Assembly: GCA_037441145.1 (NCBI GenBank) | Contig: JBBISR010000007.1 | Coordinates: 24,988 to 88,987 of the forward strand | Direction of reading: 5' to 3' | DNA: 64,000 nucleotides | DNA from: Armatimonadota bacterium | GTDB lineage: Bacteria > Vulcanimicrobiota > Vulcanimicrobiia > Vulcanimicrobiales > Vulcanimicrobiaceae | Part shown: piece after piece, positions 2,442-64,000 of the stretch | Position numbering within the stretch: position 1 is the first letter of the stretch | Layout of the letters: each line of letters begins with the position of its first letter | Notes under the pieces: generated by a model | Seen by the model: the letters and a program-made list of their open reading frames with translations, nothing else | Told to the model about the DNA's origin: nothing | The model's database searches: none | Position numbers and translations under genes: made by a program

Positions 2442-4040
2442 TTGAACGCGCCGAGCTTATCCGCACTCCAAGGTAAGGGAACGCAGGGGCTGGCTTGGCT
2501 GGTGCTCGCGCACGTGCCATTCGTTGCCGTCGTGTCGCTCGCAAATCACGTTCCCGCGACCGTACCGACGGCGATCGCGGCCGTCCTCGCCGCGATCGCG
2601 TTGCTCGCGGTGCGGCTCGCGCCGCTCGCGCCCGCGACCCGGCTCGCGATCGGCGCGACGTTGACGGCGATGCCGATGCTCTTCGTCCACGCCGCGATGG
2701 GTGGCGTGTGGCAGATCGATTTCCACATGTACTTCTTCGCGGTCTTCGCGATGCTCGTCGTCCTGGTCGATTGGCGCCCGATCGTGCTCGCTGCGGCGCT
2801 GACGGCGGTACACCACCTCGCCATGACGTTCTTCATGCCGATGTCGGTCTTCCCGGACCAGGCGGGGATCGTCGCGCTGCCGCGCGTCGGCCTCCATGCG
2901 ACGATCGTGGTCGTCGAGTGCGCCATCCTCGTGTGGCTCGTGCGGGCCGTGCGCCGTGCGTTTTTCGCGGCTACGGAGGCCGCCGCGAGTTCCGATGCCG
3001 CGCGTCAACAGTCGGAGCAACTCCAACGAGCGCTCGCAACGGAGTCCGACGCGAAAACGCTAGCGCTCGCCAACGCCCAGCACGCGCTCGCGGAACGCGA
3101 CGAAACGGCGGAAGCCGCCCGCCGCGAAGAGCGCGTGCGGAGCGAGGGGCGGCAGGCGATTCTCGAGCGTGAAGCGTTCGTCGGGGATCTCGCGAACCGG
3201 CTGCAATCTTCGGTGGGTGGCGTCGTCGCTTCGCTCGCCGATGCCGCGAACACGATGCTTGCCGCCGCGCACAAAGCGGGCCAAAGCGCCGAGGCGACGC
3301 ACGCGGAAGTAGCGCGCGTCATGGACGTAACGCAACACTCGGGGACCATCATCGCCGAAGTCGTGGCGGCTACCGAACGGCTCGCCGTATCGCATACGGC
3401 GATCGGAAAACGCATGGTCCAAGCGGTGACCGTCGCGCAGCGTGCGACGAGCGAATCCGCGCGCGGAACCCAAGTGCTGGGCTCGCTCGGCAGCGCGGCG
3501 GACCGCGTTGCCGACGTGCTCTCGTTGATCGAAGGCGTCGCGGATCAGACGCGGCTGCTCGCGCTCAATGCCGCGATCGAAGCCGCGCGTGCGGGCGACA
3601 CGGGCCGCGGCTTCGCCGTCGTTGCCGATGAAGTCCGCAAGCTCGCCGACGCGACGACCGACGCGACGCAAGACGTTGCAAGCGTCGTACGTTCGATCGC
3701 GGGTGCCTCGAAAGACGTTGGTGACGCGCTCGCGCTCATCGCCACCTCGATTGCGGAACTCCATACGGCGGCGAGCGAAGTGGATGGCGCGATCGGCGCC
3801 CAGGCATCGGCGACCGTTACGATTGCGGAACGGATCCGCGCCGTCGCCGATGGTACGGAGCAGATTCGCGCGGCGATCGGCCGCGTCGCGGCCGCAAGCG
3901 ACGGGGTCGGGGAGACGGCACGCGGCGTGCTCGATGGCGCGAGCGTCGTCGTCGACCGCAACGAAGAGCTCCGCCGCACGGTCGCGGGCGTCACGAACGA
4001 TTTGCTCGGCGCGAAGCGGTCGCTCGGGATGGCTTCTTAG
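2442..4040 (+). CDS. methyl-accepting chemotaxis protein with polytopic N-terminal membrane domain
   Basis: The C-terminal signalling domain has the highly conserved hairpin [31 protein letters not shown]. The N-terminal ~170 aa are 5-6 hydrophobic helices with no periplasmic domain. TTG start at 2442. Confidence 0.9.
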
Positions 4041-4690
4041 CGAGCCACCAGCGCGCGTAGCGCCGCGCTTGCGCTCGCGAGCGCTCGGCCGTCGTCGGTG
4101 TCGTGTGGGAGCGACGCGAGCAACGGTGCATGGCTAGCGAGCGCGCGCGTTGCGTCGGTGCGGTATGAATCGCCGACGGGGCCGAAACGCTCGCAAAAAA
4201 CGATACCCGCAACCGCGACCTTCGCTTGCGCGAGAAAGGCGAGCGTAAGCCGAGCGTGGTTGATACAGCCGAGTTTGAGGCCGACGACGACGATCGTGCG
4301 CGCATCGAGTGCGCGCGCGAGATCGGCGTAGGTTTCCGCGGCATTGAGCGGCACGGCGATGCCACCCGCGCCCTCGATGACGAGTGTTTCCGAAAAAGCG
4401 GAAATATGTGCCGCGAGTTTGGCGACGTGCGGGGGCTCGCGACCTTCGGCAAGCGCCGCGTTCCACGGATCGGCCGGGAGCCGATAGCGCGCGATCTCGG
4501 CGAACGCGCAACCGGCGAGGCGCGCGGCATCGTGCGCGTCGCCTGCGACATCGGGTTCGAGCCCCGTCTGCACGGGCTTCACGATCCGTACGAGGCCGTC
4601 GGCCTTGAGCGCGTGCGCCAGTGCCGCCGTGACGCGCGTCTTGCCGACGTCGGTATCCGTACCCGTTACGAAGAATCGGCGTGCGCTCAT
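4037..4690 (-). CDS. bioD: dethiobiotin synthetase
   Basis: N-terminus [18 protein letters not shown] (DTBS P-loop). The ATG at 4690 forms an ATGA overlap with the bioF stop. Confidence 0.9.
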
Positions 4691-5787
4691 GCGCGAGCGT
4701 GCGTGAGGGCGGCGAGGAGATCCGTAACATCCGCATCGGTGTGATCCGCGCGCAGGGTAAGGCGGATCATCGATTCGCCGCGCGGCACGGTCGGCGGCCG
4801 GATCGCGGGCGCGACGATGCCGAACGTCGCGAGCGCTCGTGAAAAGGCCAGCGCCGCTTCCGGCGTGCCGAGCACGATCGGTACGATCGCGCCGCCCTCG
4901 CCGCTTGCGGCGAGCCCGAGTGCGCCGAGATGCGTGCGAACCCGCGCCGCATGCGTTCGCACTCGCGCGCGCCGCGTATCGCCTTCGGCACCGGCGACGA
5001 GCGCGAGTGCGAAGCACGCGGCTTCGGCGATCGCCGGCGGCAAGGCGGTATCGAAGACGAACGCGCGTGCGTCGTTCTGCAAAAGCGAAATCACATCGCG
5101 CGGACCCGCGACGAAGCCGCCGAGCGTCCCTAGCGCCTTGGAGAGCGTGCCGATCACGACGATGCGCTCGTCCGCGACGTGGCGTGCGAGCCCGCCGCCG
5201 TGCTTGCCTTCGAGCCCGAGCGCATGTGCCTCATCGACGACGAGCACGTCGCTTGCGCCGAGCGATGCCGCAAGCGGGGCAACGTCGATGCGCGAGCCTT
5301 CCATGCCGAAGAGCGTTTCCGTGACGACGAGCGCGCGCGACGTACGTTTCGCGATTTGCGGTAGCATGCGATGCGGGTAGATCGTGCGAGGGAGCTTCGT
5401 GAGGCGGAGCGCGTCGATCGCGCACGCGTGGTTGCGTTCGTCGGAATAGGCGACCGCGACATGCGGGGCGAGCGCGCCGATCGCGCCGAGCGCCGCGAGA
5501 TACCCCGAAGAAAAGACGAGCGCCGCCTCGCGCCCGACCCATGCGGCAAGCGCCACCTCGAGCGCGACGTGCTCGGCGTGTGCGCCTGCGAGCAAACGCG
5601 CGCCGCCGGAACCGGCAACCGATGCAGCGCGCAACGCGGCCACCACGTGCGGGTGCCGCGACATGCCGAGATAGTCGTTCGACGAGAAGTCGCGCGCCGG
5701 ATCGTTTGCCGATGCACGCACGGTGCGCAGAAGCGACGTGTCGCGCAGCGCGTCGAGACGCGCGCGCACGTTCGCGAGATAGCTCAT
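4687..5787 (-). CDS. bioF: 8-amino-7-oxononanoate synthase
   Basis: MSYLANVRARLDALRD...FSSNDYLGMSRHP...VVDEAHALG is a class-II aminotransferase/BioF pattern. ATGA overlap with the bioA stop at 5784-5787. Confidence 0.9.
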   Translation of the reverse strand: MSYLANVRARLDALRDTSLLRTVRASANDPARDFSSNDYLGMSRHPHVVAALRAASVAGSGGARLLAGAHAEHVALEVALAAWVGREAALVFSSGYLAALGAIGALAPHVAVAYSDERNHACAIDALRLTKLPRTIYPHRMLPQIAKRTSRALVVTETLFGMEGSRIDVAPLAASLGASDVLVVDEAHALGLEGKHGGGLARHVADERIVVIGTLSKALGTLGGFVAGPRDVISLLQNDARAFVFDTALPPAIAEAACFALALVAGAEGDTRRARVRTHAARVRTHLGALGLAASGEGGAIVPIVLGTPEAALAFSRALATFGIVAPAIRPPTVPRGESMIRLTLRADHTDADVTDLLAALTHARA

Positions 5788-7016
5788 GGCGTGATGTCTA
5801 AAAGCACGCCGAGTTGCGCCACGAAATCGTCGAGTTCTTCCGCGCGCGCGGACAGCGGTGGGACGAGTTGGATCGCGGGGCCGATCGGCCGCGTGAAATG
5901 ACCGCGCTCGTAAAGTGCGTTTGCGATCGTCCATCCCGGCGTCGCGTCGCGTGGCTGGAAGCGGCGCTCGTCGAGCACGATCCCACACATCAAGCCCACA
6001 CGCCGAACTTCGCGCACGCGCGGGTGGCGTGCGATGCCGAGGAGCGCGCGTCCGAGTGCCGTGGAAAGCGTTGCCACGTGCGCGAGCGTGCGCTCCTCGG
6101 CGAAGAGCGCGAGCGATGCGAGTGCGGCCGCGCAAGCGATCGGGTTTGCCGCGTACGAATGCCCGTGAAAGAACTGCTTCGCCTCGCTCGTCGCGCCGAG
6201 AAATGCGTCGTAGACGTGCGCGCGCGCGAGCGTCGCCGAGAGCGCGAGCGTGCCGCCCGTGATGCCTTTACCGAGGCAGACGAGATCGGGTTTGAGGCCG
6301 AGCGCTTCGTAGGCGAACATCGTGCCCGTGCGGCCGAAGCCCGTTGCGATCTCATCGACGATAAGCAACGGCACGTGATTTTCCCGCAGCGGCGCATAGC
6401 GTGCGTCGTCGACGACGCGCATGCCGGCCGCCGCCTGCACGCGCGGTTCGACGACGATCGCCGCTACGTCGCTCGCGTCGAGAAACGCGGGCACTTCGTC
6501 GTACGCGTACGTTTCGAAGCAGAGCGCGCCGAAATTTTTTTTGAAGACGGCGATATCGGAGAGGCTCATCGCGCCGATCGTATCGCCGTGATAGCTTGCC
6601 GCGAGACGCACGAACCGCGTGCGTTGCGGTTCGCCGCGATGCCGCCAGTACTGCACGGCCATCTTCATTGCGGCCTCGATCGCGCTCGCACCGTCGCTTG
6701 CGAAGAATGCGTAGTCGAGCCCGGTCAGCGCGGTCAGGCTATCCGCGAGTTCCTCGGCGACCGGATTCGTCGCTCCGAGCGCCGTCGCGTGATCGAGGCG
6801 CGCGGCTTGTGCGGCGATCGCGGATGTGATCGCCGGGTGTCCGTGCCCGTGAATCGTCGTCCAGATCGACGACGTCGCATCGAAGGTCGTGTGACCGCGT
6901 GCATCCGTCAATCGGGTCCCGGCCGCGGCGACGAACGTTCGACGCTCGCGATCGAAGCCGGCCATCTGCGTGAAGGGAAGCCAGTGATGCGAGGGCTTTG
7001 CTTGCAATGGGTTCAC
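5784..7016 (-). CDS. bioA: adenosylmethionine-8-amino-7-oxononanoate aminotransferase
   Basis: HHWLPFTQM...IWTTIHGHGHP...DEIATGFGRTG is a BioA/class-III aminotransferase pattern. The GTG at 7016 makes a GTGA overlap with the upstream HD gene stop. An alternative GTG lies at 7031. Confidence 0.9.
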   Translation of the reverse strand: MNPLQAKPSHHWLPFTQMAGFDRERRTFVAAAGTRLTDARGHTTFDATSSIWTTIHGHGHPAITSAIAAQAARLDHATALGATNPVAEELADSLTALTGLDYAFFASDGASAIEAAMKMAVQYWRHRGEPQRTRFVRLAASYHGDTIGAMSLSDIAVFKKNFGALCFETYAYDEVPAFLDASDVAAIVVEPRVQAAAGMRVVDDARYAPLRENHVPLLIVDEIATGFGRTGTMFAYEALGLKPDLVCLGKGITGGTLALSATLARAHVYDAFLGATSEAKQFFHGHSYAANPIACAAALASLALFAEERTLAHVATLSTALGRALLGIARHPRVREVRRVGLMCGIVLDERRFQPRDATPGWTIANALYERGHFTRPIGPAIQLVPPLSARAEELDDFVAQLGVLLDITP

Positions 7017-42361: not shown

Positions 42362-42483
42362 AACGCCCGAGAGTGAGCGCCTTCACACCGCGCGGATACG
42401 TGCTACTCGGGCGTTTGGTCGCGATAGCATCCCGCGTTCTCATACCACTCATGTATCCGCATCAGAAAAAAGGACGCCCCGTC

Positions 42484-44034
42484 ATGTTTCGTTCGTTCCG
42501 CTCGGCCGTACCCGCGCTCGCGATCGTCGCCTGCGCCGTCAGCGCAACCGCAGCACCCGTGCTTGCCCAATCCGCTCCGCCCACGATCGCGATCACTTCC
42601 GGTGCGAATCAGGCCGTCGCTGCGACCGCGCAAATCAGCGGTGTCGTCGGCGATCCGAATCTCGGCTTCAACCCGGCCCGTGGGGTCGCGAATCCGCCGC
42701 CGATTCCCGTTGGCGGTGCCGCCCCGATTGCGATTTCCGTGAAAAACGCCGCGGGAACCCCGCTCGCAAATGCGCGCGTTTTGTTCTCGTGCGAATTTGC
42801 CGGAGGTCAGTGTTTTCTGTTTCCGCGAAGCAGCACGCATTTCACGGTGACCGATGCGGCGGGTAACGCGACGACCGTCTTCGGCGCAGGCAGTACCGCC
42901 TTCCCGAACGGCGTCGGTGCGCTAATTGCCCCGGTCACGAACAGCACGCTCGCAAGCGGCACGGCGAAAATTACCATCACGCTGCGCGACTTTCCGAACG
43001 CCGTCGCGACGACGACGCTTGCCGTCACGGGAGCCGCGCCGGTAACGAGCGGAACGTCGACGGGGCGATCGGGCGCCACGGTCACGATCGTCGCCGGTGC
43101 GCGGCAAACGCTGAGCGCCACGGGGCAGATCAACCGCATTACGGGCGATACCGCCCTTGGGTTCAACCCCACCCGCGGCGGCGTGCAGCTGGCCCCCCTT
43201 GCGGCCGCGGGTGCCGCCGCGATTACGATTGCGGCGAAAGACGGCGCGGGAAATCCCGTTGCGGGCGCGCGCATCGTGTTCGCATGTACCTTTGCGGGCG
43301 GCCAGTGCTTCCTCGCTCCGGGCGCCACCGATCACTTCACCGTCACCGATGCGATGGGCATGGCGACGAATCTCTTCGGCGCGGGGAGCACCGCGTTTCC
43401 GAACGGCGTCGGCGCGCTGATCACCGCGGGACCGAACGGACAACTCGCGAGCGGCACGGCGACGATTACGGCCACGCTCCGTGACTTCCCGAATGCCGTC
43501 GCGACGACCACGCTTGCGGTGACCGGCGCGGCTGCCGCGGCAACACCGCCCGCAACTGCGCCGACGAAAACGGGTAGCACGACGATCGCGTTCGTCGATG
43601 GTGCGAATCAAACGGGCGTCGGCACGGCACCGCTCAACGTCATGGCGGGCGACCCGGCACTCGGGATCGTGACCTCGCGTCGCACGCTCGCAACGCCGGT
43701 CGTTCGTGCCGCCGGCGCCAAAGCGATGACCGTCCGCGTCCTCGACGCCGCAGGCAATCCCGTCGTCGGCGTACGCGTGTTCTTTACGTGTCAGGTCGCG
43801 CAAGCGCAATGCTTTATGAGCCGTGCCGGGGTGCTCTCGGGCGTGTTCACCGACGCATCGGGAACGGCGACGAATCTCTTCGGCGTCGGCAGTAACGCCT
43901 TCCCAACCGGCGTCGGTGCCCTGATTTTCCCGAACCTGAACCAGACGCTCGCGGCGACGACCGCGACCATCACCGCGCGCGTGGCCAGTGCGCAAACGGC
44001 GGTTGCGACGACGACGATCGGCATCACGCCGTAG
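42484..44034 (+). CDS. secreted protein built of three ~165-aa tandem repeats (Ig-like, one Cys pair each)
   Basis: Signal peptide MFRSFRSAVPALAIVACAVSATAAPVLA. There are three units, each with C.FAGGQCF (CQVAQAQCF in unit 3), FTVTDA.G.ATN.FGAGSTAFPNGVGALI and TLRDFPNAVATTTLAVTG. The nucleotide landmark ttcccgaacggcgtcgg recurs with small substitutions at 42901, 43396 and 43900 (periods 495 and 504 nt). Confidence 0.7.
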   Translation: MFRSFRSAVPALAIVACAVSATAAPVLAQSAPPTIAITSGANQAVAATAQISGVVGDPNLGFNPARGVANPPPIPVGGAAPIAISVKNAAGTPLANARVLFSCEFAGGQCFLFPRSSTHFTVTDAAGNATTVFGAGSTAFPNGVGALIAPVTNSTLASGTAKITITLRDFPNAVATTTLAVTGAAPVTSGTSTGRSGATVTIVAGARQTLSATGQINRITGDTALGFNPTRGGVQLAPLAAAGAAAITIAAKDGAGNPVAGARIVFACTFAGGQCFLAPGATDHFTVTDAMGMATNLFGAGSTAFPNGVGALITAGPNGQLASGTATITATLRDFPNAVATTTLAVTGAAAAATPPATAPTKTGSTTIAFVDGANQTGVGTAPLNVMAGDPALGIVTSRRTLATPVVRAAGAKAMTVRVLDAAGNPVVGVRVFFTCQVAQAQCFMSRAGVLSGVFTDASGTATNLFGVGSNAFPTGVGALIFPNLNQTLAATTATITARVASAQTAVATTTIGITP

Positions 44035-44098: not shown

Positions 44099-45418
44099 AT
44101 GTCGGCTGATCTCGTCGCCGTGGCACTCGCCGCGGCGACGGCATCCGGCGCCACCGACGCGGAAGCGTCGCTCGGACTCGCCGATCGCTTCGCCTGCGAA
44201 GCGCGGCTGACGGAAGTAACGAAGCTCGAGCGCTCGCGTGCGCGCGGGCTTTCGTTGCGCGTGTTCGTCGGCAAGAAACGTGCCGCGCTCTCGACGACCG
44301 ACCTGACGCCTGCGGGTATTCGCGAGCTCGCGACGCGCACGGTCGAGGCCGCGCGCTTCGTGGCCGACGACCCGCACGCCGGGCTACCCGAAGTTTTCGG
44401 GATCGCGGAAGGTGACTTCGGGCTCGTCTCGCCGGACGTCGCCGCGCGGCCCGACGAAGCGAAGATCGAAGAAGCGCTAGAGCTCGAACGCTTGGTGCGC
44501 CAGGGCGATCCGCGTATCACGAACTCGAAGGGCGCGCATGTCGGCGACACCCGTGCGACGCATCTGCTCGCGAATACGCGCGGCTTTTCGGGATCGTACG
44601 ATACGACGTATGCGAGCCGTAGCGTAACGCCGCTTGCGAGCGACGGCGCCGACCGCCGGATCGGATCGTATGGAAGCGCAGCGCGGTCCTATGCCGGGCT
44701 CACACCGGTTGCCGATGTCGCCCGCATCGCCGTCGAGCGCGCCGTGCTCTTGTGCGGTGCGCGCAAGCCTGCGACGATGCGCATCCCCGTGATCTTCGAG
44801 CGCGATCTCGCCGCGAGCGTCCTTGGCGATTTATTCGCCGCGCTCGGCGCTGCGAACGTCGCGAGCGGAAACTCGTTTCTGACCGATCGGATCGGCGAGC
44901 GCATCGGGAGCGATCTCGTCACGATCGTCGACGATGGCTTGCTCCCCGGTGGCCTCGGCACCGCGCCGTTCGATGCCGAAGGCGTGCCGACGCGCACGAC
45001 GACCGTCATCGAACGCGGGATGTTTCGGACGTTTCTCGCGGATACGTACAATGGGCGGCGCATCGGCATAGCCTCGACCGGCAACGCTTCGGGCGGCGGC
45101 GTCGGCGCGAACAATTTCTTCTTACAGCCCGGATCGGGGACGCTCGAAGAGCTTATCCGCAAGACGCAGCGTGGCGTGCTCGTAACGGACACGATCGGCT
45201 TTGCAACGGAATACGCGAGCGGCATGTACAGCCGCGGCGCGCGCGGAATGATGATCGAAAACGGCGAGCTGGCCTATCCCGTGGACGAGTTCACGATCGC
45301 CTCGACCTTCGGCGAGATGCTCCTCGGCATCGACGCGATCGCGGACGATCTCATCCACGACGGACGCGTCGTTTCGCCGTCCTTTCGCGTCGCCGAAATG
45401 ACGATCAGCGGAACGTAA
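44099..45418 (+). CDS. pmbA: metalloprotease PmbA/TldE
   Basis: PmbA-like throughout (LSLRVFVGKKRAALSTTDL..., C-terminal FRVAEMTISGT). ATG at 44099. Confidence 0.9.
   Translation: MSADLVAVALAAATASGATDAEASLGLADRFACEARLTEVTKLERSRARGLSLRVFVGKKRAALSTTDLTPAGIRELATRTVEAARFVADDPHAGLPEVFGIAEGDFGLVSPDVAARPDEAKIEEALELERLVRQGDPRITNSKGAHVGDTRATHLLANTRGFSGSYDTTYASRSVTPLASDGADRRIGSYGSAARSYAGLTPVADVARIAVERAVLLCGARKPATMRIPVIFERDLAASVLGDLFAALGAANVASGNSFLTDRIGERIGSDLVTIVDDGLLPGGLGTAPFDAEGVPTRTTTVIERGMFRTFLADTYNGRRIGIASTGNASGGGVGANNFFLQPGSGTLEELIRKTQRGVLVTDTIGFATEYASGMYSRGARGMMIENGELAYPVDEFTIASTFGEMLLGIDAIADDLIHDGRVVSPSFRVAEMTISGT
45337..45418 (+). repeat. left copy of the 82-nt direct repeat (functional 3' end of pmbA)
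   Basis: 75 of 82 nt are identical to 46601-46682. It encodes IADDLIHDGRVVSPSFRVAEMTISGT*. Confidence 0.9.
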
Positions 45419-45427
45419 TCGCGTCTT

Positions 45428-45673
45428 CTATCTTCCCGACTTGGTCAACGCTGCAGCAAGGCGCTGTGCGGACTCAAAGTAGCGAGCGTGCGTTTTGCGC
45501 AAGGTCGTCTCATCATGGGATTCGATTTCTACGATTTCGAGATGCTCTGCTTTGCGGTGCTCCAACTCAAGAGCTAGTCGCGCGGCACCAGACGCATCAA
45601 AATCAGCATCAGCAAAGCGCTCAAGATGACGCACTATTCCGGCCTTGCGATCGTAAACGATCAAAAAAATCAT
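45428..45673 (-). CDS. small acidic hypothetical protein (81 aa), candidate partner or antitoxin of the SAS gene
   Basis: ATG at 45673 with AGGAA 7 nt upstream, 49 nt downstream of the SAS stop. Sequence MIFLIVYDRKAGIVRHLERFADADFDASGAARLALELEHRKAEHLEIVEIESHDETTLRKTHARYFES... I do not recognise a domain. Confidence 0.6.
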   Translation of the reverse strand: MIFLIVYDRKAGIVRHLERFADADFDASGAARLALELEHRKAEHLEIVEIESHDETTLRKTHARYFESAQRLAAALTKSGR

Positions 45674-45722
45674 CGCTCTGTTCCTGTTGCTCTAACATCG
45701 CTGCGCGACCTAGGAGACGCGA

Positions 45723-46520
45723 TTAGGTGCTGTCTTGAGCGCCACGCGCTTCTGGATCGTCTGAGGTCTGCGCCGGTATTTCCTCCGTTTCAATCCCGAT
45801 TATTCGCTCCGCCTCGTCGAGCGCACGGTCAGTCATTGCTAATTTTATGTCGATATTCTCAAGCTCGGCGTCACGCTCGCCGTCGCTTCGTCCATCGAGG
45901 ATCTCGCCGATCACGCTTGCCAGCCCCTGTTTCACCTGCGCAAGCTGTTCAACCGCGGTTTCAATATTGATTATGTAATTCGCAAAATTCCGAAGTTGTT
46001 TTTGGATTTGCTCTGAACCCCCGCCGTACTTTACCTCTGCTCCGAACTCATCGGCGAGACGTTCGCTCATTTGAGCCCAATCGTTTTGAAGTCTCGTCCT
46101 GATTTGAATTTCTACAAAATACTCATCGTCACTTACGATTATGTGGACAGCGCGATATCCTGTTCGGTTCTGCAAGCCTCTCTTATCATCAATTCGCGCG
46201 GTCGGATAAACACGGAGAATGTTCGCTACGAGATCGTCTTGCTCTCGATTTTGCGCAACTACGAGACGTAGCCCACCGATATCTTGCATGCGAGAGAGGC
46301 GAGTTTTCTCACGAACCAATTTCGCGACGATTGAGAATGTCGATTTTTGCGGACGAAGCGACATCGTCGCATCATCGAGTAGTGGAACGATATTCGCGGC
46401 TATCTTATGCACGACAGGCGCGAAGCCAGAGCGAAATTTCGAGAGGAGCGCAAGATCGTCTTCACTCACCGAGCCGTGACGCAATCGCTCCCCTAGCCGA
46501 TCGATTTCACTTCGCGTCAT
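45723..46520 (-). CDS. stand-alone RelA/SpoT-homologue small alarmone synthetase (synthetase domain plus helical acidic tail)
   Basis: The ordered motifs are LRPQKSTFSIVAKL, MQDIGGLRLVV, TGYRAVHIIV and VEIQIRTRLQNDWA. There is no HD hydrolase, TGS or ACT domain. The ATG at 46520 gives MTRSEIDRLGERL. The longer track ORF (to 46772) merely reads antisense through the pmbA-repeat. Confidence 0.85.
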   Translation of the reverse strand: MTRSEIDRLGERLRHGSVSEDDLALLSKFRSGFAPVVHKIAANIVPLLDDATMSLRPQKSTFSIVAKLVREKTRLSRMQDIGGLRLVVAQNREQDDLVANILRVYPTARIDDKRGLQNRTGYRAVHIIVSDDEYFVEIQIRTRLQNDWAQMSERLADEFGAEVKYGGGSEQIQKQLRNFANYIINIETAVEQLAQVKQGLASVIGEILDGRSDGERDAELENIDIKLAMTDRALDEAERIIGIETEEIPAQTSDDPEARGAQDST

Positions 46521-46600
46521 AGGATCGTCTTCACGGGCGCGGCCCACCTGGCCCGTCGTATGACAGCCAAGAATGTCGGGCTCATTTTTTAAGGCGACCT

Positions 46601-46682
46601 GATCGCGGACGGCCTTGTCCACGACGGCCGCGTCGTTTCGCCGTCCTTCCGCGTCGCCGAAATGACGATCAGCGGAACTTAA
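46601..46682 (+). pseudogene. displaced remnant of a pmbA 3' end (right copy of the direct repeat)
   Basis: Encodes IADGLVHDGRVVSPSFRVAEMTISGT* followed by TAA, but has no pmbA body upstream. The junction is at the A/T-rich ctcattttttaagg. Confidence 0.75.
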
Positions 46683-46753
46683 GTTCGCGGTAATATCCAC
46701 GGGGTGGAAGCCGTTTGCGAGGACACCCGGGTCGCGTCCCCGTAGCCGGGGGG

Positions 46754-48193
46754 ATGGCAAGTCCAGCAGCAATCGGTTTCACCCTCATCATGCGTCTCGA
46801 AATGTCGGCGCATCCCGGCGCCTTCGGCACCGTCTCCTCGGCGATCATCGATGCGGGGGGCACGATCTCCGCAGTCGACATGCGCTCCGCCGGCAAGACC
46901 GCCGTGGTGCGCGATTTCTCCGTAACCGTCCCGAGCGATCCGGTCGGGAACGCCGTGCGTCTCGCGGTCGAAGCGCTCGATGGCGTGCGCATCATCTCGA
47001 TGTCCGATTCGACGTTCCTCGCGCACCTCGGCGGCAAGATCACGATCGATCCGAAGATGCCGATCAAGACGCGTCAGGATCTCTCGACCGTGTATACGCC
47101 GGGCGTCGCGCGCGTCTCGATGGCGATCGCAAACGATCCCGCGAAAGCGTTCACGCTGACGATCAAGAAAAATACCGTTGCCGTCGTCACCGATGGAACG
47201 GCCGTACTCGGCCTCGGCGATATCGGCCCGCTCGGCGCGGCGCCCGTGATGGAGGGCAAATGCGCGCTGTTCAAACAGTTTGCGGGCATCGATGCGTTTC
47301 CGATCTGCCTCGACACCAAAGATGTCGATGAGATCGTCGAGACGATCGTACGCATCGCGCCGATCTTCGGCGGTATCAACCTCGAAGATATCTCCGCACC
47401 GCGCTGCTTCGAAGTCGAAAAACGCCTGATCGAGCGCCTCGATATCCCCGTGATGCACGATGACCAACACGGCACCGCAGTCGTGATCCTCGCGGCGCTT
47501 ATCAACGCGGCGAAAGTCGTCGGCAAAGAACTGAGCGCGATGCGCGTCGTCGTCGTCGGCAGCGGCGCCGCCGGCACCGCAACGATCAAGATGCTACTCG
47601 CGGCGGGGATCGGCGACGTCGTTCCCGTGGATCGTGCGGGCGCGATCAACCGTGGCGATCGGTACGAGAATCCGTACTGGACGTGGCTTGCCGAAAACAC
47701 GAATCGCGAGAACCGCCGTGGCAATTTGCACGACGTGCTCAAGGGCGCCGATTGCTTCATCGGCGTCAGCGCGCCCGGCATCTTGACGGTCGAAGATCTT
47801 AAGACGATGGGCAAGGACCCGATCGTGTTCGCGATGGCGAACCCGACGCCCGAAATCATGCCGGACATCGCGGCGCCGTACGTTGCCGTCATCGGCACGG
47901 GGCGTTCGGATTTTCCGAATCAAGTGAATAATCTACTCGCGTTTCCGGGCCTCTTCCGCGGCGCGCTCGATGCACGCTCGACCCGTATTAGCGAGGGGAT
48001 GAAGCTTGCGGCCGCACACGCGATCGCGAACATCGTTGGCGAAGAGCGGTCGGCGGAATATGTGATCCCGAGCGTGTTCGATCAGCGCGTCGTCGACGCC
48101 GTCGCGAAAGCGGTCGCTCAGGCGGCCGTGGAAGAAGGGCTTAGCCGACGTAGCCTCCTAGTCAACGAGGAAGAAAACGCGGCCCTCGTCTAG
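46754..48193 (+). CDS. NAD(P)-dependent malic enzyme with N-terminal ACT-like domain
   Basis: YTPGVARV...VVTDGTAVLGLGDIGPLGAAPVMEGKCALFK...DISAPRCFE...HDDQHGTAVV...GSGAAG is the bacterial malic enzyme pattern. Confidence 0.9.
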   Translation: MASPAAIGFTLIMRLEMSAHPGAFGTVSSAIIDAGGTISAVDMRSAGKTAVVRDFSVTVPSDPVGNAVRLAVEALDGVRIISMSDSTFLAHLGGKITIDPKMPIKTRQDLSTVYTPGVARVSMAIANDPAKAFTLTIKKNTVAVVTDGTAVLGLGDIGPLGAAPVMEGKCALFKQFAGIDAFPICLDTKDVDEIVETIVRIAPIFGGINLEDISAPRCFEVEKRLIERLDIPVMHDDQHGTAVVILAALINAAKVVGKELSAMRVVVVGSGAAGTATIKMLLAAGIGDVVPVDRAGAINRGDRYENPYWTWLAENTNRENRRGNLHDVLKGADCFIGVSAPGILTVEDLKTMGKDPIVFAMANPTPEIMPDIAAPYVAVIGTGRSDFPNQVNNLLAFPGLFRGALDARSTRISEGMKLAAAHAIANIVGEERSAEYVIPSVFDQRVVDAVAKAVAQAAVEEGLSRRSLLVNEEENAALV

Positions 48194-62057: not shown

Positions 62058-62837
62058 TTGCACGGTAAGCCGATGATCGCCGTTGCCGTCGACGCCGCGC
62101 GCCAGGCGGGAGCGCTCCTCGCCGCCCGCTTTGGCGGGCCGCTCCAGATCGCCGAGAAGGCGCGCCGTAACGACCTCGTTACCGACGCCGATCGGGCCAG
62201 CGAGGCGTTGATCGTGCAACTGTTACGCGCCGCGACACCGCATGCTGCGACTCTCGGCGAGGAGGGTGGTACGACGGCCGGTACGAGCGACGAGCGCTGG
62301 ATCGTCGATCCGCTCGACGGCACGACCAATTTCGCGCACGGTTATCCGTTCTGGTGCGTTTCGATCGCGTACGAACGCGCCGGAATCGTCGAGGCGGGCG
62401 CCATTTACGCGCCGCTCTTCGGCGAGATGTACGCCGCCGTTCGCAACGGCGGCGCGACCTGTAACGACGTTCCGATTTGCGTCACCGACCCCGTCGCGCT
62501 CGGCGATGCGTTCGTGTGCACGGGTTTCAAGCCCGACGATTACGCGCGCAACGGCGATGCATTTGCGGCTGCATCGCGCGCCGCGCAAGGCGTGCGTCGC
62601 GACGGGTCGGCCGCACTCGATCTGGCGTTTACGGCACGCGGGCGTTTCGATGGCTTCTGGGAATTCGATCTCGCGCCGTGGGACATCGCCGCTGGCGCGT
62701 TGCTCGTGCGCGAAGCGGGCGGGATCGTCACGACGCTCACCGGGAGCGCGCACGACGTTGTGAGCCCGCATATTCTCGCCGCGGGGGCCGCGCTGCACCC
62801 GCAACTCGTTTCGTTGCTTTCACCCTTCGCGAAATAG
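62058..62837 (+). CDS. inositol monophosphatase family protein (SuhB-like)
   Basis: LGEEGG...WIVDPLDGTTNFAHG...AALDLAF...WDIAAGALLVREAGG. Start is TTG 62058 or ATG 62073. Confidence 0.85.
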   Translation: MHGKPMIAVAVDAARQAGALLAARFGGPLQIAEKARRNDLVTDADRASEALIVQLLRAATPHAATLGEEGGTTAGTSDERWIVDPLDGTTNFAHGYPFWCVSIAYERAGIVEAGAIYAPLFGEMYAAVRNGGATCNDVPICVTDPVALGDAFVCTGFKPDDYARNGDAFAAASRAAQGVRRDGSAALDLAFTARGRFDGFWEFDLAPWDIAAGALLVREAGGIVTTLTGSAHDVVSPHILAAGAALHPQLVSLLSPFAK

Positions 62838-63055
62838 AAGGCATCCAAGAACTTTGAACTTTGCGCGCGCGTTGCGGGAGACGGTCACACTCCCAACACG
62901 CGAGCGGAGTGAGATGCGCGTCCTCGACAACGACACGAAAAACGGTTACACAGCGTAGCACCCGGACGAGCACATCCCGCCGCGCCTGATCGCCGCACGC
63001 GGTGCATCCACTACTCCGAGAGGGCCTTTAGCCGCCTTTTCATACTGTGATACTG

Positions 63056-63065
63056 ATGATATCAT
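63056..63065. promoter_or_regulatory. 10-bp perfect palindrome ATGATATCAT in an AT-rich stretch upstream of the RHH gene
   Basis: It lies within catactgtgatactgATGATATCATgatatga, ~73 nt upstream of ATG 63138. It is a plausible autoregulatory operator or -10 region, but this rests on position only. Confidence 0.2.
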
Positions 63066-63137
63066 GATATGAAGACATTACATTTCTTCGGACGGTTGGC
63101 AAACGCGTTACCGTCAAATCGAAAAGGACAAAAAGAT

Positions 63138-63428
63138 ATGTCGGAACGTGGTAAGGCATCGAGCGGCGCCGTAAAGCAAGTCCCGCTACGCCTCGAACCA
63201 GAGCTCTACGAAGAACTCGCGCGTCGATCGGCTATCGAGCAAAAGTCGATGAATACGATCGTTCGCGAAGCGCTTCGCGCGCAATTCGACACCGTTCGAA
63301 TCACCAAATCACAACTCCATGCTGCGATCACGCGCATCGCTCGTGACGACAGCGAAATACTCGCCAAATTAGCGGGCCCTGAAACGGAAAACACCGACGA
63401 ATGCAAGGCTGTTCTATCTCGCGCCTGA
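63138..63428 (+). CDS. ribbon-helix-helix (Arc/CopG/HicB-C-like) DNA-binding protein, orphan
   Basis: VPLRLEPELYEELARRSAIEQKSMNTIVREALRAQF is an RHH beta-strand plus two helices. The ATG at 63138 has an AAGGA RBS. The region has low GC (a hand count of 63061-63120 gives 42%). Confidence 0.6.
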   Translation: MSERGKASSGAVKQVPLRLEPELYEELARRSAIEQKSMNTIVREALRAQFDTVRITKSQLHAAITRIARDDSEILAKLAGPETENTDECKAVLSRA

Positions 63429-63799
63429 GGTCGTACAGGAGCCCTTCGACGCTCTGTTGGGCGCATTATCAACCGCGCTTCGCTCAAAAGACTTGCGGAA
63501 GCAGCGGTGATGGGACCGCACCAAAGCGCCTTTGGAGAAGACCGTCGCAGAGGAAAATTCGCGTATCGGCCGACGACGTCACGAACATCGATTTGCAGAT
63601 CATGCGCAGCCATGGTGCACCGATCCGTTGTCGTGCTAGTTTGCGCGACGTGGGGCGGCGAGTCCGTCGGAATCTTCGCTTTGGCCGCCGTGTGGTATAA
63701 GGCTGGTCTCAAGTCTTCGGAGGGATAAAAGCAAACCTCCTAGTAATGCCCACGGCGTAGCCATTTGCTGCCACACTTTTCGTTTAGGGGTAACGAGGT

Positions 63800-64000
63800 T
63801 TGAATAAGATTGTTCTTGTTTTTCTCGCCGTCCTTTTAAGCTCGTGTTCGTCGGGAACGATTGCAAAACCGATGCCGAGTGCCTCTCCATCTGCTGTGCA
63901 CAATCTGACGATTCAGCCTACTGCGAACGGGCGCGTGATCAATTTCTCGATCGCTAGCGCAGCAAACACGAGCGTTCCCATGACGATCGTCATGACAACG
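63800..64000 (+). CDS. probable lipoprotein, 3'-partial (runs off the window end)
   Basis: Hand translation from TTG 63800 gives (M)NKIVLVFLAVLLSSC|SSGTIAKPMPSASPSAVHNLTIQPTANGRV..., with a lipobox and an open frame to the window end. It is absent from the ORF track, presumably because there is no stop. The start codon is weakly supported. Confidence 0.35.
   Translation, partial: MNKIVLVFLAVLLSSCSSGTIAKPMPSASPSAVHNLTIQPTANGRVINFSIASAANTSVPMTIVMTT

Follow-up and report, generated by a model that had tools for sequence, protein, structure and literature searches.

A CapRel-type toxSAS cassette between imperfect repeats of the pmbA terminus in an uncultured Eremiobacterota lineage

The islet at the 3' end of pmbA

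In the window analysed here, a 64-kb stretch of DNA from an uncultured Eremiobacterota lineage, an intact pmbA gene is followed by a short islet that lies between two copies of the pmbA terminus and precedes a gene for an NAD(P)-malic enzyme (Table 1). The PmbA protein matches the three Pfam domains of the family (PmbA_TldD_1st, 2nd and 3rd; E=1.5e-66 for the C-terminal domain) and the NCBIfam PmbA model at E=2.6e-63, which is under the curated cutoff of that model, and an identical protein (P0121) is present in public data. Between the repeat copies lie 1176 nt (~1.18 kb) that hold, as the preliminary description of this DNA had stated, just two minus-strand genes, situated 9 nt and 74 nt away from the repeats. 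The A/T-richness that had been noticed in this stretch is borne out by windowed GC, which falls to 0.47-0.55 against ~0.66 in the flanks. GC3 in the two islet genes is 0.51 (0.51 for the antitoxin gene and 0.515 for the toxin gene) against 0.779 ± 0.043 in 32 host genes (z ~ -6), and the islet is the compositional outlier of the window. The composition, together with the existence of relatives that do not carry the cassette, supports the earlier view that the segment was acquired horizontally and inserted at the pmbA terminus. The 74-nt leader upstream of the toxin gene presumably serves as the cassette promoter; no sigma-70 consensus was found in it, a negative that is uninformative for the host phylum.

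Table 1. Coordinates of the features at the pmbA locus, as positions in the window.
Feature	Position	Strand	Description
pmbA, TldD/PmbA-family metalloprotease (target gene)	44099..45418	+	intact, 439 aa
Left repeat copy	45331..45418	+	functional pmbA 3' terminus including the TAA stop
Inserted unit	45419..46682 (equivalently 45331-46594)		1264 nt, cassette plus one repeat copy (start-to-start spacing)
Antitoxin gene	45428..45673	-	81 aa, free-standing counterpart of the fused CapRel C-terminal antitoxin domain
toxSAS toxin gene, RelA/SpoT-type nucleotidyltransferase, CapRel-like	45723..46520	-	265 aa, ATG at 46520
Cassette leader, putative promoter region	46521..46594	-	74 nt, up to the in-frame TAA (46590-46592) closing off the pmbA remnant
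Right repeat copy	46595..46682	+	displaced non-coding pmbA remnant, beyond which native DNA leads to the malic enzyme gene
NAD(P)-malic enzyme gene	46754..48193	+	native downstream neighbour, outside the element; Pfam malic and Malic_M

The direct repeat had been given as 82 nt with 75 identical positions; that count is correct, and the true extent is slightly greater, with 79 of 88 positions identical between the two copies (E = 1e-27 when they are compared by BLAST) and both of the perfect runs reported for it, of 20 and 29 nt, present in the alignment. The window contains just one other direct repeat of 40 nt or more, which lies inside an upstream gene for a 553-aa protein. Similarity between the 88-nt copies is continuous, with mismatches spread along the whole span and no short identical core between non-homologous arms, and it stops exactly at the pmbA stop codon. 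Both copies end in TAA and encode the peptides IADDLIHDGRVVSPSFRVAEMTISGT and IADGLVHDGRVVSPSFRVAEMTISGT, and codon comparison reproduces the six changed codons described earlier, four of them synonymous and the other two giving D/G and I/V replacements. The right copy is not a gene, since an in-frame TAA precedes it, in keeping with the proposal that one copy keeps pmbA intact and the other is a displaced, non-coding terminus. This remnant has nevertheless accumulated no indel or frame break, and seven random substitutions would leave the frame intact with at most two amino-acid changes in only 1.2% of cases (P = 0.012). Polarisation of the differences with outgroups yields a single left-to-right switch at 45348/45349 (chance 6/128), a pattern defined by seven informative sites and distant outgroups, with two four-fold degenerate sites excluded, one of which disagrees if counted. 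By parsimony with the same kind of distant outgroups, the left copy carries ~4 derived changes, mostly synonymous, and the right remnant ~3 in 81 sites.

The reported absence of a recombinase extends to integrase, transposase and relaxase Pfam domains, none of which was detected in the islet or among the 40 further ORFs mapped across the window. Neither terminal inverted repeats nor attC-like ends were found at the islet boundaries, which consist of pmbA coding sequence, and no tRNA was found near the islet. The sole nearby inverted pair (45413-45430 / 45711-45728) spans the antitoxin gene and is no more than chance would produce. Searches of viral, metagenome and species-representative genome collections returned neither a related element nor another instance of the cassette.

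A CapRel-type toxSAS toxin-antitoxin pair

The cargo of the islet, which the preliminary description had left without an identity, is an unfused toxSAS toxin-antitoxin module of the CapRel type, as revealed by domain content, fold and an antitoxin HMM, with structure and HMM defining its proximity to CapRel. The toxin passes the curated cutoff of the Pfam RelA_SpoT family (PF04607, E=1.8e-14) and matches positions 9-252 of PADLOC PDC-S33 (E=1e-26), a candidate-defence profile that provides the sole, indirect hint at a defence role of the cassette. Its AlphaFold model (pLDDT 88.5) retrieves RSH synthetases as all of its top Foldseek matches, the best PDB matches being the CapRel structures 9erv and 7ztb (E 6e-9 to 4e-8 over 240-258 columns), and the assigned start codon agrees with the N-termini of homologues. 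In a set of 48 homologues, D80, G121-Y122, E137 and R141 are family-invariant and Q139 nearly so, and the window toxin keeps all of them; the D80-type aspartate (QDIGG) is presumably the Mg/ATP-binding residue, and the ExQxRT motif is taken to comprise catalytic or substrate residues, as in other RSH enzymes. The toxin is a predicted RelA/SpoT pyrophosphokinase whose probable effect is a block of translation through modification of tRNA 3' ends, and the cassette is presumably toxic and addictive to its host. Toxins of this type are expected to halt growth unless neutralised by their antitoxin, to use the tRNA CCA end or ATP (giving (pp)pApp) as substrate, and to act in phage-triggered defence. 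The role of the G-loop tyrosine in CapRel-type enzymes has been documented (PMC9712102).

The antitoxin belongs to a family of ~330 representatives, nearly all of them free-standing at 75-100 aa. An ORF of 80-103 aa lies directly downstream of the toxSAS homologue in 10/10 contexts inspected, and 66 of 110 toxSAS ORFs proved to have a separate antitoxin ORF downstream. The antitoxin HMM also matches the C-terminus (residues ~265-345) of 30 fused toxSAS ORFs, and the fused proteins of two loci (L066 and L153) align over their full length with CapRel 7ztb/9erv, at E 1e-42 and 1e-47. The window antitoxin itself matches PDC-S33 at positions 265-339 (E=0.003). Its structural model (pLDDT 88.7) has a beta-beta-alpha-beta-alpha-alpha topology and gives no significant fold match against the CapRel structures, so that the link between this antitoxin and CapRel is a transitive one. 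The homology agrees with the published relationship between fused and unfused CapRel systems (PMC9712102).

The toxSYNTH fold, the G-loop tyrosine and the ExQxRT-type residues of the fused CapRel-SJ46 (PDB 7ZTB) are all present in the window toxin, but identity to CapRel-SJ46 is only ~17-20% over the fold alignment, and the antitoxin motif reads H-x-R-Y-F in the window family against Y-P-N-Y-F in CapRel. The order of the genes, toxin followed by a small antitoxin, is that of the unfused CapRel-ATcapRel and PhRel-ATphRel systems (PMC9712102, PMC7229694, PMC11782079), from which the window pair differs in its host, extending unfused CapRel-type toxSAS systems to the Eremiobacterota. The nearest homologues of the cassette are 43-48% identical and lie in unrelated contexts, and the toxSAS cassette family is common on phage-like contigs.

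Related loci and the Actinomyces massiliensis twin

In the Eremiobacterota relatives the pmbA-malic enzyme synteny is kept, with malic enzyme orthologues 73-80% identical downstream of pmbA, a single pmbA terminus, no cassette and no repeat. The gap between the two genes ranges from 31 nt to 4.7 kb and is variable in content; in the closest relative (L058), with only 80% PmbA identity, it holds a different, 119-aa gene, and the window sequence from ~46703 on aligns with the L058 region upstream of the malic enzyme gene. Because the nearest relative stands at this distance and carries other DNA in the gap, the polarity and timing of the insertion in the window lineage are inferred. Strong flanking repeats were detected at 3 of 58 homologous cassette loci and at none of 47 controls, a difference that is not significant, and the repeat-bounded state is an exception within the toxSAS cassette family.

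A twin of the window arrangement occurs in Actinomyces massiliensis, where a distant homologue of the toxSAS-antitoxin cassette (28% toxin identity with the window) is flanked by a 131-nt repeat starting 27 nt inside the 3' end of an MFS gene. The copies share a 27-nt perfect run followed by 104 nt of further homology, the cassette genes lie 55 and 16 nt from them, and the Actinomyces and window targets have no sequence in common. The repeat anatomy is seen in three independent assemblies (L160, L171 and L177) beside empty alleles, within a population that comprises full, toxin-truncated and empty alleles. At nine empty-site loci, the reference genome among them, the target is present once, and positions 5170-5300 of one of these empty loci (L174) align with both L171 copies, at 5170-5300 and 6000-6130.

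The Actinomyces repeat copies are demonstrably mosaics of strain haplotypes. The first 85 nt of the left copy of L171 are 97.6% identical to an empty strain, whereas its last 46 nt show 69.6% identity to that same strain and 95.7% to their own right copy; the right flank derives from another lineage (96.2%), and the 3' parts of both copies share one filled-specific haplotype. The divergence between these repeats therefore reflects homologous recombination, not age. Different strain haplotypes in the Actinomyces copies, along with the coding-like divergence of the pmbA remnant, lend modest support to the earlier suggestion that the two pmbA termini are of different ancestry and not the product of a fresh duplication. 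An argument from the AT-richness of one Actinomyces copy is undermined by the existence of AT-richer empty-site haplotypes.

Origin of the islet and comparison with known systems

The islet is best explained, with moderate probability, as a horizontally acquired toxSAS addiction or defence module that inserted with a long target duplication and has been moved and kept by host functions. In this model, a repeat-flanked cassette would enter related strains through ordinary homologous recombination, with the repeat copies and the flanking genes serving as arms, a route formally equal to excision of a circle by way of the repeats and its Campbell integration. Such import would turn the two repeat copies into mosaics of different strain haplotypes, which could account for both the 90% identity and the coding-like divergence of the repeats. 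Recombination between the repeats would lose the cassette, and this loss would be counter-selected by post-segregational killing, since the toxin is set free once the antitoxin gene is gone. As a counterpoint, 88 nt at 90% identity with a longest perfect run of 29 nt is a poor RecA substrate, and for the window genome the recombination route is an inference.

Repeats of a target 3' end with the gene restored, such as those at pmbA, are also the classic signature of site-specific integration, and the locus might instead represent a decayed integrative element (CIME/microCIME). An integrase island carrying a replacement terminus in its attP would have entered the 3' end of pmbA, and later deletion would have left the toxin-antitoxin pair between attL and attR, where a related integrase could mobilise it in trans. 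CIMEs that retain attL/attR but no integrase are on record (PMC5704250, PMC7563491), the single switch in the polarised differences fits an attL composed of host and then element sequence and an attR composed of element and then host sequence, and toxin-antitoxin pairs are the genes likeliest to outlast decay. Furthermore, at one locus (L059) the cassette lies between 171-nt repeats with degraded transposase-like fragments. However, no integrase domain turned up in the islet or the 40 other ORFs scanned, searches of viral, metagenome and genome collections yielded no related element with the cassette or the site, homology covers the full 88 nt in place of a short core between unrelated arms, and the two targets lack a common sequence. 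The tight trimming of the cassette, to 9/74 nt here and 55/16 nt in Actinomyces, would be unlikely to arise by random deletions, and a single site-specific crossover does not predict the same filled-specific 3' haplotype in both Actinomyces copies. A decayed element is hence an unlikely origin, and the earlier framing of the islet as an integrase-type integrative element, odd for its missing integrase, is not supported as stated: no integrase-bearing relative using the pmbA site was found in the collections searched, and a small addiction module within a long imperfect target duplication, with no mobility gene, has already been described for restriction-modification units (PMC2853133).

A long target duplication could also have formed in situ at a single ancient insertion, for instance when a staggered or resected break was repaired around the entering DNA, with the copies diverging afterwards by mutation alone and without later recombination or transfer. 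Exactly this course was proposed for restriction-modification units (PMC2853133), it is consistent with the 95.7% identity of the Actinomyces 3' parts, as in an originally perfect duplication, and the few polarised changes on the remnant (~3) make a drifting remnant statistically possible. Mutation alone, however, predicts the opposite of what is seen in the functional left copy, which has at least as many derived changes as the remnant (~4 vs ~3), and a remnant devoid of indels and frame breaks would be rare if all seven changes were random (P = 0.012). The cassette GC3 of 0.51, with no amelioration to 0.78, argues against long residence, and in Actinomyces the divergence of the copies demonstrably stems from recombination; duplication followed by mutation alone is accordingly quite improbable. 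An assembly artefact, with pmbA termini of different strains mis-joined in the metagenome, would be conceivable in an uncultured lineage whose exact PmbA and antitoxin proteins trace to one 150,616-nt contig, but the longest perfect run between the copies (29 nt) is well under typical final assembly k-mers, a chimeric join swaps flanks and would not duplicate them around 1.18 kb of unique DNA, both junctions make biological sense, with pmbA intact as an ORF on the left and the native malic enzyme upstream region on the right, and the same anatomy recurs in the three Actinomyces assemblies, making an artefact very improbable. It is hardly credible that both genes are old residents of the locus lost in other lineages, beside an unrelated local duplication: the content of the pmbA-malic enzyme gap does vary widely in the Eremiobacterota, but both genes stand at GC3 z = -6, none of the Eremiobacterota relatives examined carries either of them at the locus, their nearest homologues are distant and in unrelated contexts, and the repeat brackets the pair exactly.

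It is a long-standing loose end how islets of a single toxin-antitoxin or defence operon, with no recombinase, come to lie at ordinary chromosomal sites. Here one toxin-antitoxin family appears in the same type of scar in two unrelated hosts, one of them an uncultured Eremiobacterota lineage and the other Actinomyces massiliensis, a culturable bacterium of the mouth. Insertion with long target duplication, if moved and kept by host functions, admits a tentative generalisation, possible rather than likely, in which small cassettes, of toxin-antitoxin genes or of other addiction or defence genes, act as recombinase-free mobile units: the long flanking repeats of host sequence would allow them to leave as circles, or they would be acquired as linear DNA, and they would then re-enter the homologous site of related genomes by host recombination and regenerate their repeats, while the toxin punishes repeat-mediated loss. 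If true, the scar would depend on addiction as a selection filter and not on DNA cleavage by the cargo. Imperfect flanking repeats, moreover, can be recombination mosaics and not marks of age, and the allele polymorphism in Actinomyces offers a tractable system for the study of excision, re-integration and addiction-enforced retention.

The window unit can be set against several known arrangements. Chromosomal integrons contain single toxin-antitoxin operons that act as minimal mobile units without a recombinase of their own and stabilise their surroundings, but these cassettes have attC sites at their ends and depend on IntI for movement, whereas the window unit is bounded by pmbA coding copies. 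In phage 21 and e14, which insert at icd, the incoming DNA brings a replacement 3' end that is mostly synonymously diverged, and the native terminus becomes the distal repeat; these are prophage-type elements of 15-40 kb with their own integrase, in contrast to a 1.26-kb unit with none. The decayed CIMEs and microCIMEs of streptococci, which lie at the 3' end of fda or of tRNA genes (PMC5704250, PMC7563491), share the islet anatomy and an intact target gene (PMC5704250), but they have known ICE/IME parents, identifiable integrases and short att cores. No parent or integrase was found for the window unit, homology is continuous over 88-131 nt in the window and Actinomyces, and the Actinomyces pattern fits homologous, not site-specific, exchange.

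The closest parallel is found in restriction-modification units, which leave the same scar in genomes, without mobility genes and with 46-423-bp repeats of ~93-100% identity, some over the 3' end of a gene (PMC2853133). This mode of insertion, 'insertion with long target duplication', is attributed to Nobusato et al. (2000) in a later article (PMC3874152). Furuta, Abe and Kobayashi (2010; PMC2853133) defined such units by a complete pair, an insert below 20 kb, a target duplication above 30 bp, the absence of a linked mobility gene (integrase, transposase, resolvase or phage gene) and a related empty site in which a single target aligns with both repeat copies. The window has a complete pair within 1176 nt, an 88-nt duplication and no mobility gene; a related empty site accompanies the Actinomyces loci L160/L171/L177, and the window relatives have a single terminus and no cassette, the nearest at 80% PmbA identity. 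The window islet and the restriction-modification units are both small, self-contained addiction modules of atypical GC that lack a transposase or integrase and lie within long imperfect target duplications of tens to hundreds of bp, and the presence/absence polymorphism with clean empty sites seen in restriction-modification units has its counterpart in the Actinomyces twin. The recombinase-free cycle outlined above likewise corresponds to the 'virus-like life cycle' hypothesised for these units. The difference lies in the cargo, a type II toxin-antitoxin (toxSAS) pair in place of a restriction-modification system. The mechanism suggested by Furuta et al. (2010) depends on DNA breakage by the restriction enzyme, which a tRNA- or nucleotide-targeting toxin cannot supply. 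Among the papers searched, those naming both long target duplication and toxin-antitoxin systems apply this insertion mode to restriction-modification units only, and the scar is apparently new for toxin-antitoxin modules, which suggests that the property common to its cargoes is addiction, not DNA breakage.

An islet between two copies of the pmbA terminus

The preliminary description held that the end of pmbA recurs a short distance downstream of the gene, and both the structure and its description prove to be accurate. The direct repeat exists and is slightly longer than stated, with 79 of 88 nt identical between the copies (BLAST E = 1e-27), with stretches of 20 and 29 nt free of mismatches. 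Each copy terminates in TAA, and the encoded peptides differ, as claimed, by six changed codons, of which four are synonymous. On the right, homology ends exactly at the stop codon, and its left limit is abrupt. An in-frame TAA lies just ahead of the right copy, which is not a gene. Direct repeats of at least 40 nt occur only twice in the window, as this pair and as one internal to the upstream gene for a 553-aa protein. The low-GC stretch and the two minus-strand genes reported between the copies were likewise recovered: GC falls to 0.47–0.55, and GC3 is 0.51 for both genes against 0.779 ± 0.043 for 32 host genes (z ~ -6), the islet being the strongest compositional outlier of the 64 kb.

Features of the islet and its surroundings in the window
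Feature	Position	Strand	Remarks
tldD-like gene	40955-42361		
Gene for secreted-looking protein	42373-44034	+	553 aa
Direct repeat, left copy	45331-45418		functional pmbA 3' terminus
Inverted repeat, first arm	45413-45430		18 nt
Putative antitoxin gene	45428-45673	-	81 aa
Inverted repeat, second arm	45711-45728		18 nt
Putative toxin gene	45723-46520	-	265 aa, RelA_SpoT domain; ATG at 46520
Extended toxin frame	45723-46772	-	TTG at 46772
In-frame TAA	46590-46592		
Direct repeat, right copy	46595-46682		pmbA terminus remnant
Second low-GC patch	62800-63900		GC 0.53-0.56
ORF in second patch	63069-63428	+	119 aa; GC3 0.53, z=-5.8

The claimed absence of a recombinase also holds, since Pfam scans of 40 other window ORFs returned no integrase, transposase, resolvase or relaxase, the functions recovered being core ones, for example dnaG, rpoD and an AcrB-type pump. 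The islet was judged not to be an integron, transposon, MITE or tRNA island, because it has no attC and no terminal inverted repeats and no tRNA gene is nearby, the only one lying 18 kb away. Rfam gave no match in the islet, its scan yielding only a sub-threshold PhotoRC-I in the malic enzyme gene, and nothing was found in a promoter/terminator scan, the lack of a sigma-70 consensus being uninformative in this phylum.

The PmbA relatives of the window belong to the Eremiobacterota/Vulcanimicrobiota, and the gene order pmbA, malic enzyme, response regulator is conserved among them. In an empty allele, the pmbA stop would be followed directly by gttcgcggtaatatccacgggg. An empty site from the same species was not found, and the closest available relative (P0122, locus L058) is 80% identical in PmbA, the next at most 67%. 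L058 lacks the cassette; it has a single pmbA terminus and a host-GC ORF of 119 aa, and alignment of the region 5' of its malic enzyme gene with the window starts at about 46703. The cassette is absent from L058 and from the other relatives, and hence represents an insertion relative to all known relatives. Among the Eremiobacterota loci L002–L010, the pmbA–malic enzyme gap measures between 31 nt (L009) and 4.7 kb. Where PmbA is ~62% identical, it contains ordinary host-GC genes and no pmbA-terminus repeat, which indicates plain synteny decay at this depth, and the notion of an insertion hotspot was rejected because the relatives' inserts are host-GC and lack repeats. Several of these genomes carry a conserved gene for a ~320-aa membrane protein, on the opposite strand and adjoining the malic enzyme gene, and the gap also contains aminotransferase-like and other genes; the set of genes at this junction thus changes quickly across the phylum.

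Two further observations concern the surrounding DNA. The gene for the 553-aa protein, which contains three tandem repeat units of ~500 nt and gives a weak Big_1 match, lies between the tldD-like gene and pmbA. These two genes are adjacent or overlapping in relatives (L058 5263-6669 and 6659-7990; L002 and others), and the 553-aa gene is therefore a second, host-GC insertion at this locus. Just after the inositol-monophosphatase gene there is a second patch of foreign composition, whose ORF encodes a ribbon-helix-helix-like segment and gives a weak HicB-antitoxin Pfam match (E=6e-4, below cutoff). A further small toxin-antitoxin islet may be present here; up to position 64000, where the window ends, no terminus repeat was detected.

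A CapRel-type toxin-antitoxin pair

The 265-aa protein contains a RelA_SpoT domain (E=1.8e-14) and aligns with the PADLOC candidate-defence profile PDC-S33 over its positions 9-252 (E=1e-26), while positions 265-339 of the same profile are matched by the 81-aa protein (E=0.003). In an alignment of 48 homologues, residues D80, G121-Y122, E137 and R141 are invariant and Q139 nearly so, corresponding to the Mg/ATP site, the G-loop and the ExQxRT motif of RSH synthetases; the role of the G-loop Tyr has been described previously (PMC9712102). The AlphaFold model of the toxin is confident (pLDDT 88.5), and its best PDB neighbours are those of the Salmonella-phage CapRel tRNA pyrophosphokinase (9erv, 7ztb; E 6e-9 to 4e-8), followed by housekeeping small alarmone synthetases. 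The fold alignment with CapRel spans 240-258 columns and therefore reaches into the CapRel helical anchor region. The nearest toxin homologues are 43-48% identical, and those of 300-330 aa among the top matches, considered as toxin-antitoxin fusions, turned out not to be fused. No close copy of the cassette was found in protein-guided scans of viral contigs (best 35%) and metagenome contigs (best 39%), nor in a set of 5.8 billion proteins (best 48%), and the donor is hence untraceable. The toxin frame remains open for 84 codons 5' of its ATG and crosses the pmbA remnant on the antisense strand, a shadow ORF that could mislead gene callers; the exact toxin sequence, with either start codon, is absent from a 15-billion-protein collection in which its two neighbours are present.

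The family of the 81-aa protein comprises ~330 representatives, nearly all free-standing and of 75-100 aa, with an N-terminal MIFLIxYDR and a C-terminal H-x-R-Y-F motif, and a gene of 80-103 aa lies immediately 3' of the toxSAS gene in all ten homologue contexts looked up. An HMM of this family detects 30 fused toxSAS proteins of 340-410 aa, in which it covers the last ~65 residues, and a separate downstream ORF for 66 others. Two of the fused proteins align end-to-end with CapRel-SJ46 (E 1e-42 and 1e-47), through the C-terminal antitoxin domain and with CapRel AYPNYF opposite the family HxRYF, and the relationship between fused and unfused forms is the one described earlier in CapRel and PhRel (PMC9712102). 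With a pLDDT of 88.7, the antitoxin model shows a beta-beta-alpha-beta-alpha-alpha topology that fits the published description of the pseudo-ZFD. A Foldseek search of the PDB with this model gave no significant match, and the link to the CapRel antitoxin domain is thus transitive, via the fused intermediates. These lines of evidence leave little doubt that the two genes form a toxSAS toxin-antitoxin pair of the unfused CapRel type, for which toxicity, substrate and any anti-phage role may be presumed by analogy with the family (PMC7229694, PMC11782079, PMC9712102). The antitoxin gene is bracketed almost exactly by an 18-nt inverted repeat (16/18 complementary) reaching from the pmbA stop to the toxin stop. 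Its occurrence is within the estimated chance expectation for the region, but exchange of the antitoxin gene as a module, or a structure in the transcript, could also account for it.

Origin and divergence of the flanking repeats

Strong flanking repeats accompany 3 of 58 homologous cassette loci and 0 of 47 control positions. This difference is not significant, so that the repeat-bounded state appears exceptional for the family, and a general association was dropped. In intergenic DNA of L059 (also L060), 171-nt direct repeats (1303-1473 and 3815-3984, 89% identity) enclose a cassette more closely related to that of the window (44% toxin identity), and short ORF fragments at 3265-3590 resemble an IS110-type transposase, a different mobile context for the same module. 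In L116, a 322-aa toxSAS with a C-terminal extension resides in a low-GC phage-like block (2531-6957) whose ORFs look, by eye, RecT-like, Rha/antirepressor-like and exonuclease-like, with 53-nt repeats (98% identity) 3.8 kb apart; the toxSAS C-terminus resembles the antitoxin motif, below the antitoxin HMM threshold.

The geometry of the window is reproduced in one of the three loci with strong repeats, a twin from Actinomyces massiliensis (P0423, 97% identity; reference genome GCA_000269805.1). At locus L160, a toxSAS and antitoxin unit of ~1.2 kb, with no other gene and a GC of 0.60 versus 0.72, is bracketed by a 131-nt repeat of 83% identity, whose start lies 27 nt within the 3' end of an MFS-transporter gene and whose end coincides with that of the intergenic region, the cassette lying 55 and 16 nt from the repeats. 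Nine loci, the reference genome included, are empty and contain the 131-nt target once, whereas L171 and L177 contain a shorter unit, from which 384 nt with the toxin 5' end are missing. In this unit (L171 and L177 5301-5999; compare L160 5932-6315), the cassette leader and the first ~110 toxin codons have been lost; the antitoxin gene and both repeats are kept, in a toxin-dead decay state beside full and empty alleles. The empty target of L174 (5170-5300) aligns with both copies in L171 (5170-5300 and 6000-6130), and the left junction is common to all filled alleles, so that a single ancestral insertion took place. An IS3-type transposase pair (HTH_Tnp_1 + rve; about 1650-2850 in L171-L176, L178 and L180) lies 1.3-2.3 kb 5' of the MFS gene in filled and empty alleles alike, and is therefore unrelated to cassette presence; the left end of L171 additionally carries a group II intron-type reverse transcriptase.

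Empty strains differ from one another in the target (91.6-100% identity, four haplotypes), and the repeat copies of A. massiliensis are mosaics of these strain haplotypes. The first 85 nt of the L171 left copy are 97.6% identical to L174, and its last 46 nt are 69.6% identical to L174 and 95.7% to its own right copy; the left flank is 99.4% identical to L174, the right flank 96.2%. This is most simply explained if a near-perfect duplication arose in one lineage and was then carried into other strains through homologous recombination, a single crossover falling within the repeat. An argument for an element-borne target copy, based on the AT-richness of L160 copy A (16 vs 3, p=0.004), was withdrawn because empty sites also carry AT-richer haplotypes.

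In the window, the differences between copies were polarised with L058 and seven more distant pmbA termini, two four-fold degenerate sites being uninformative. The outgroups match the left copy at 45335/6 and 45348 and the right copy at 45349, 45353, 45364 and 45385, a single left-to-right switch with a chance of 6/128. The reconstructed native terminus reads ...ADDLV..., identical to L058 at the variable residues, and the incoming one ...ADGLI.... The pattern would fit a Campbell-type or two-crossover exchange, and is taken as suggestive only, given the few sites and distant outgroups. In the model proposed here, the cassette would spread by host homologous recombination via repeats and flanks, the 10% repeat divergence would reflect different strain ancestry, and addiction would counter-select repeat-mediated loss. 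As a joint account of the window, this model has slightly less than an even chance of being right, its recombination component being shown only in the twin.

The structure itself is very probably genuine: foreign DNA that was inserted with an 88-nt duplication of the target and that encodes no recombinase of its own. A decayed integrase-type element is an improbable alternative, for which neither a parental element nor an integrase was found; the homology is continuous, and the haplotypes of the twin do not form the pattern of one site-specific crossover. Duplication in place with purely mutational divergence is rather less probable again: under drift of one copy alone, seven random substitutions leave an intact frame with at most two amino-acid changes only 1.2% of the time. 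An assembly artefact is very hard to reconcile with a maximal identity of 29 nt between copies, with coherent junctions and with three independent assemblies of the twin that share this anatomy. Lastly, that the two genes are ancestral is extremely improbable, all known relatives lacking the cassette. Imperfect flanking repeats can be recombination mosaics, and A. massiliensis offers a culturable system with full, decayed and empty alleles.

Relation to known insertion types

Two known classes of insertion closely resemble the window islet. On the one hand, CIMEs and microCIMEs are integrase-less remnants that keep attL and attR at a gene 3' end (PMC5704250, PMC7563491). Unlike these, the islet has no detected parental element or integrase and its homology is continuous rather than confined to a short core, and the twin departs from the haplotypes predicted by one site-specific crossover. 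On the other hand, the "insertion with long target duplication" was defined for restriction-modification (RM) units by a complete addiction pair, a size of less than 20 kb, no mobility genes and a clean empty site (Furuta, Abe and Kobayashi, PMC2853133). Repeats of over 30 bp were required, and those observed were of 46-423 bp and roughly 93-100% identical, some overlapping a gene's 3' end; the authors suggested that the process depends on DNA breakage and that the units go through a virus-like cycle in which they insert, amplify and are released. Mruk and Kobayashi (PMC3874152) describe the insertion mode for RM systems only, and the literature checked that covers both the mode and toxin-antitoxin systems ties it to RM units only. 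All the defining features are present in the A. massiliensis twin, and all but a conspecific empty site in the window. Rather than the unusual integrative element of the preliminary description, the islet is better filed as the toxin-antitoxin counterpart of the RM scar type, extending the long-target-duplication category to cargo without nuclease activity.
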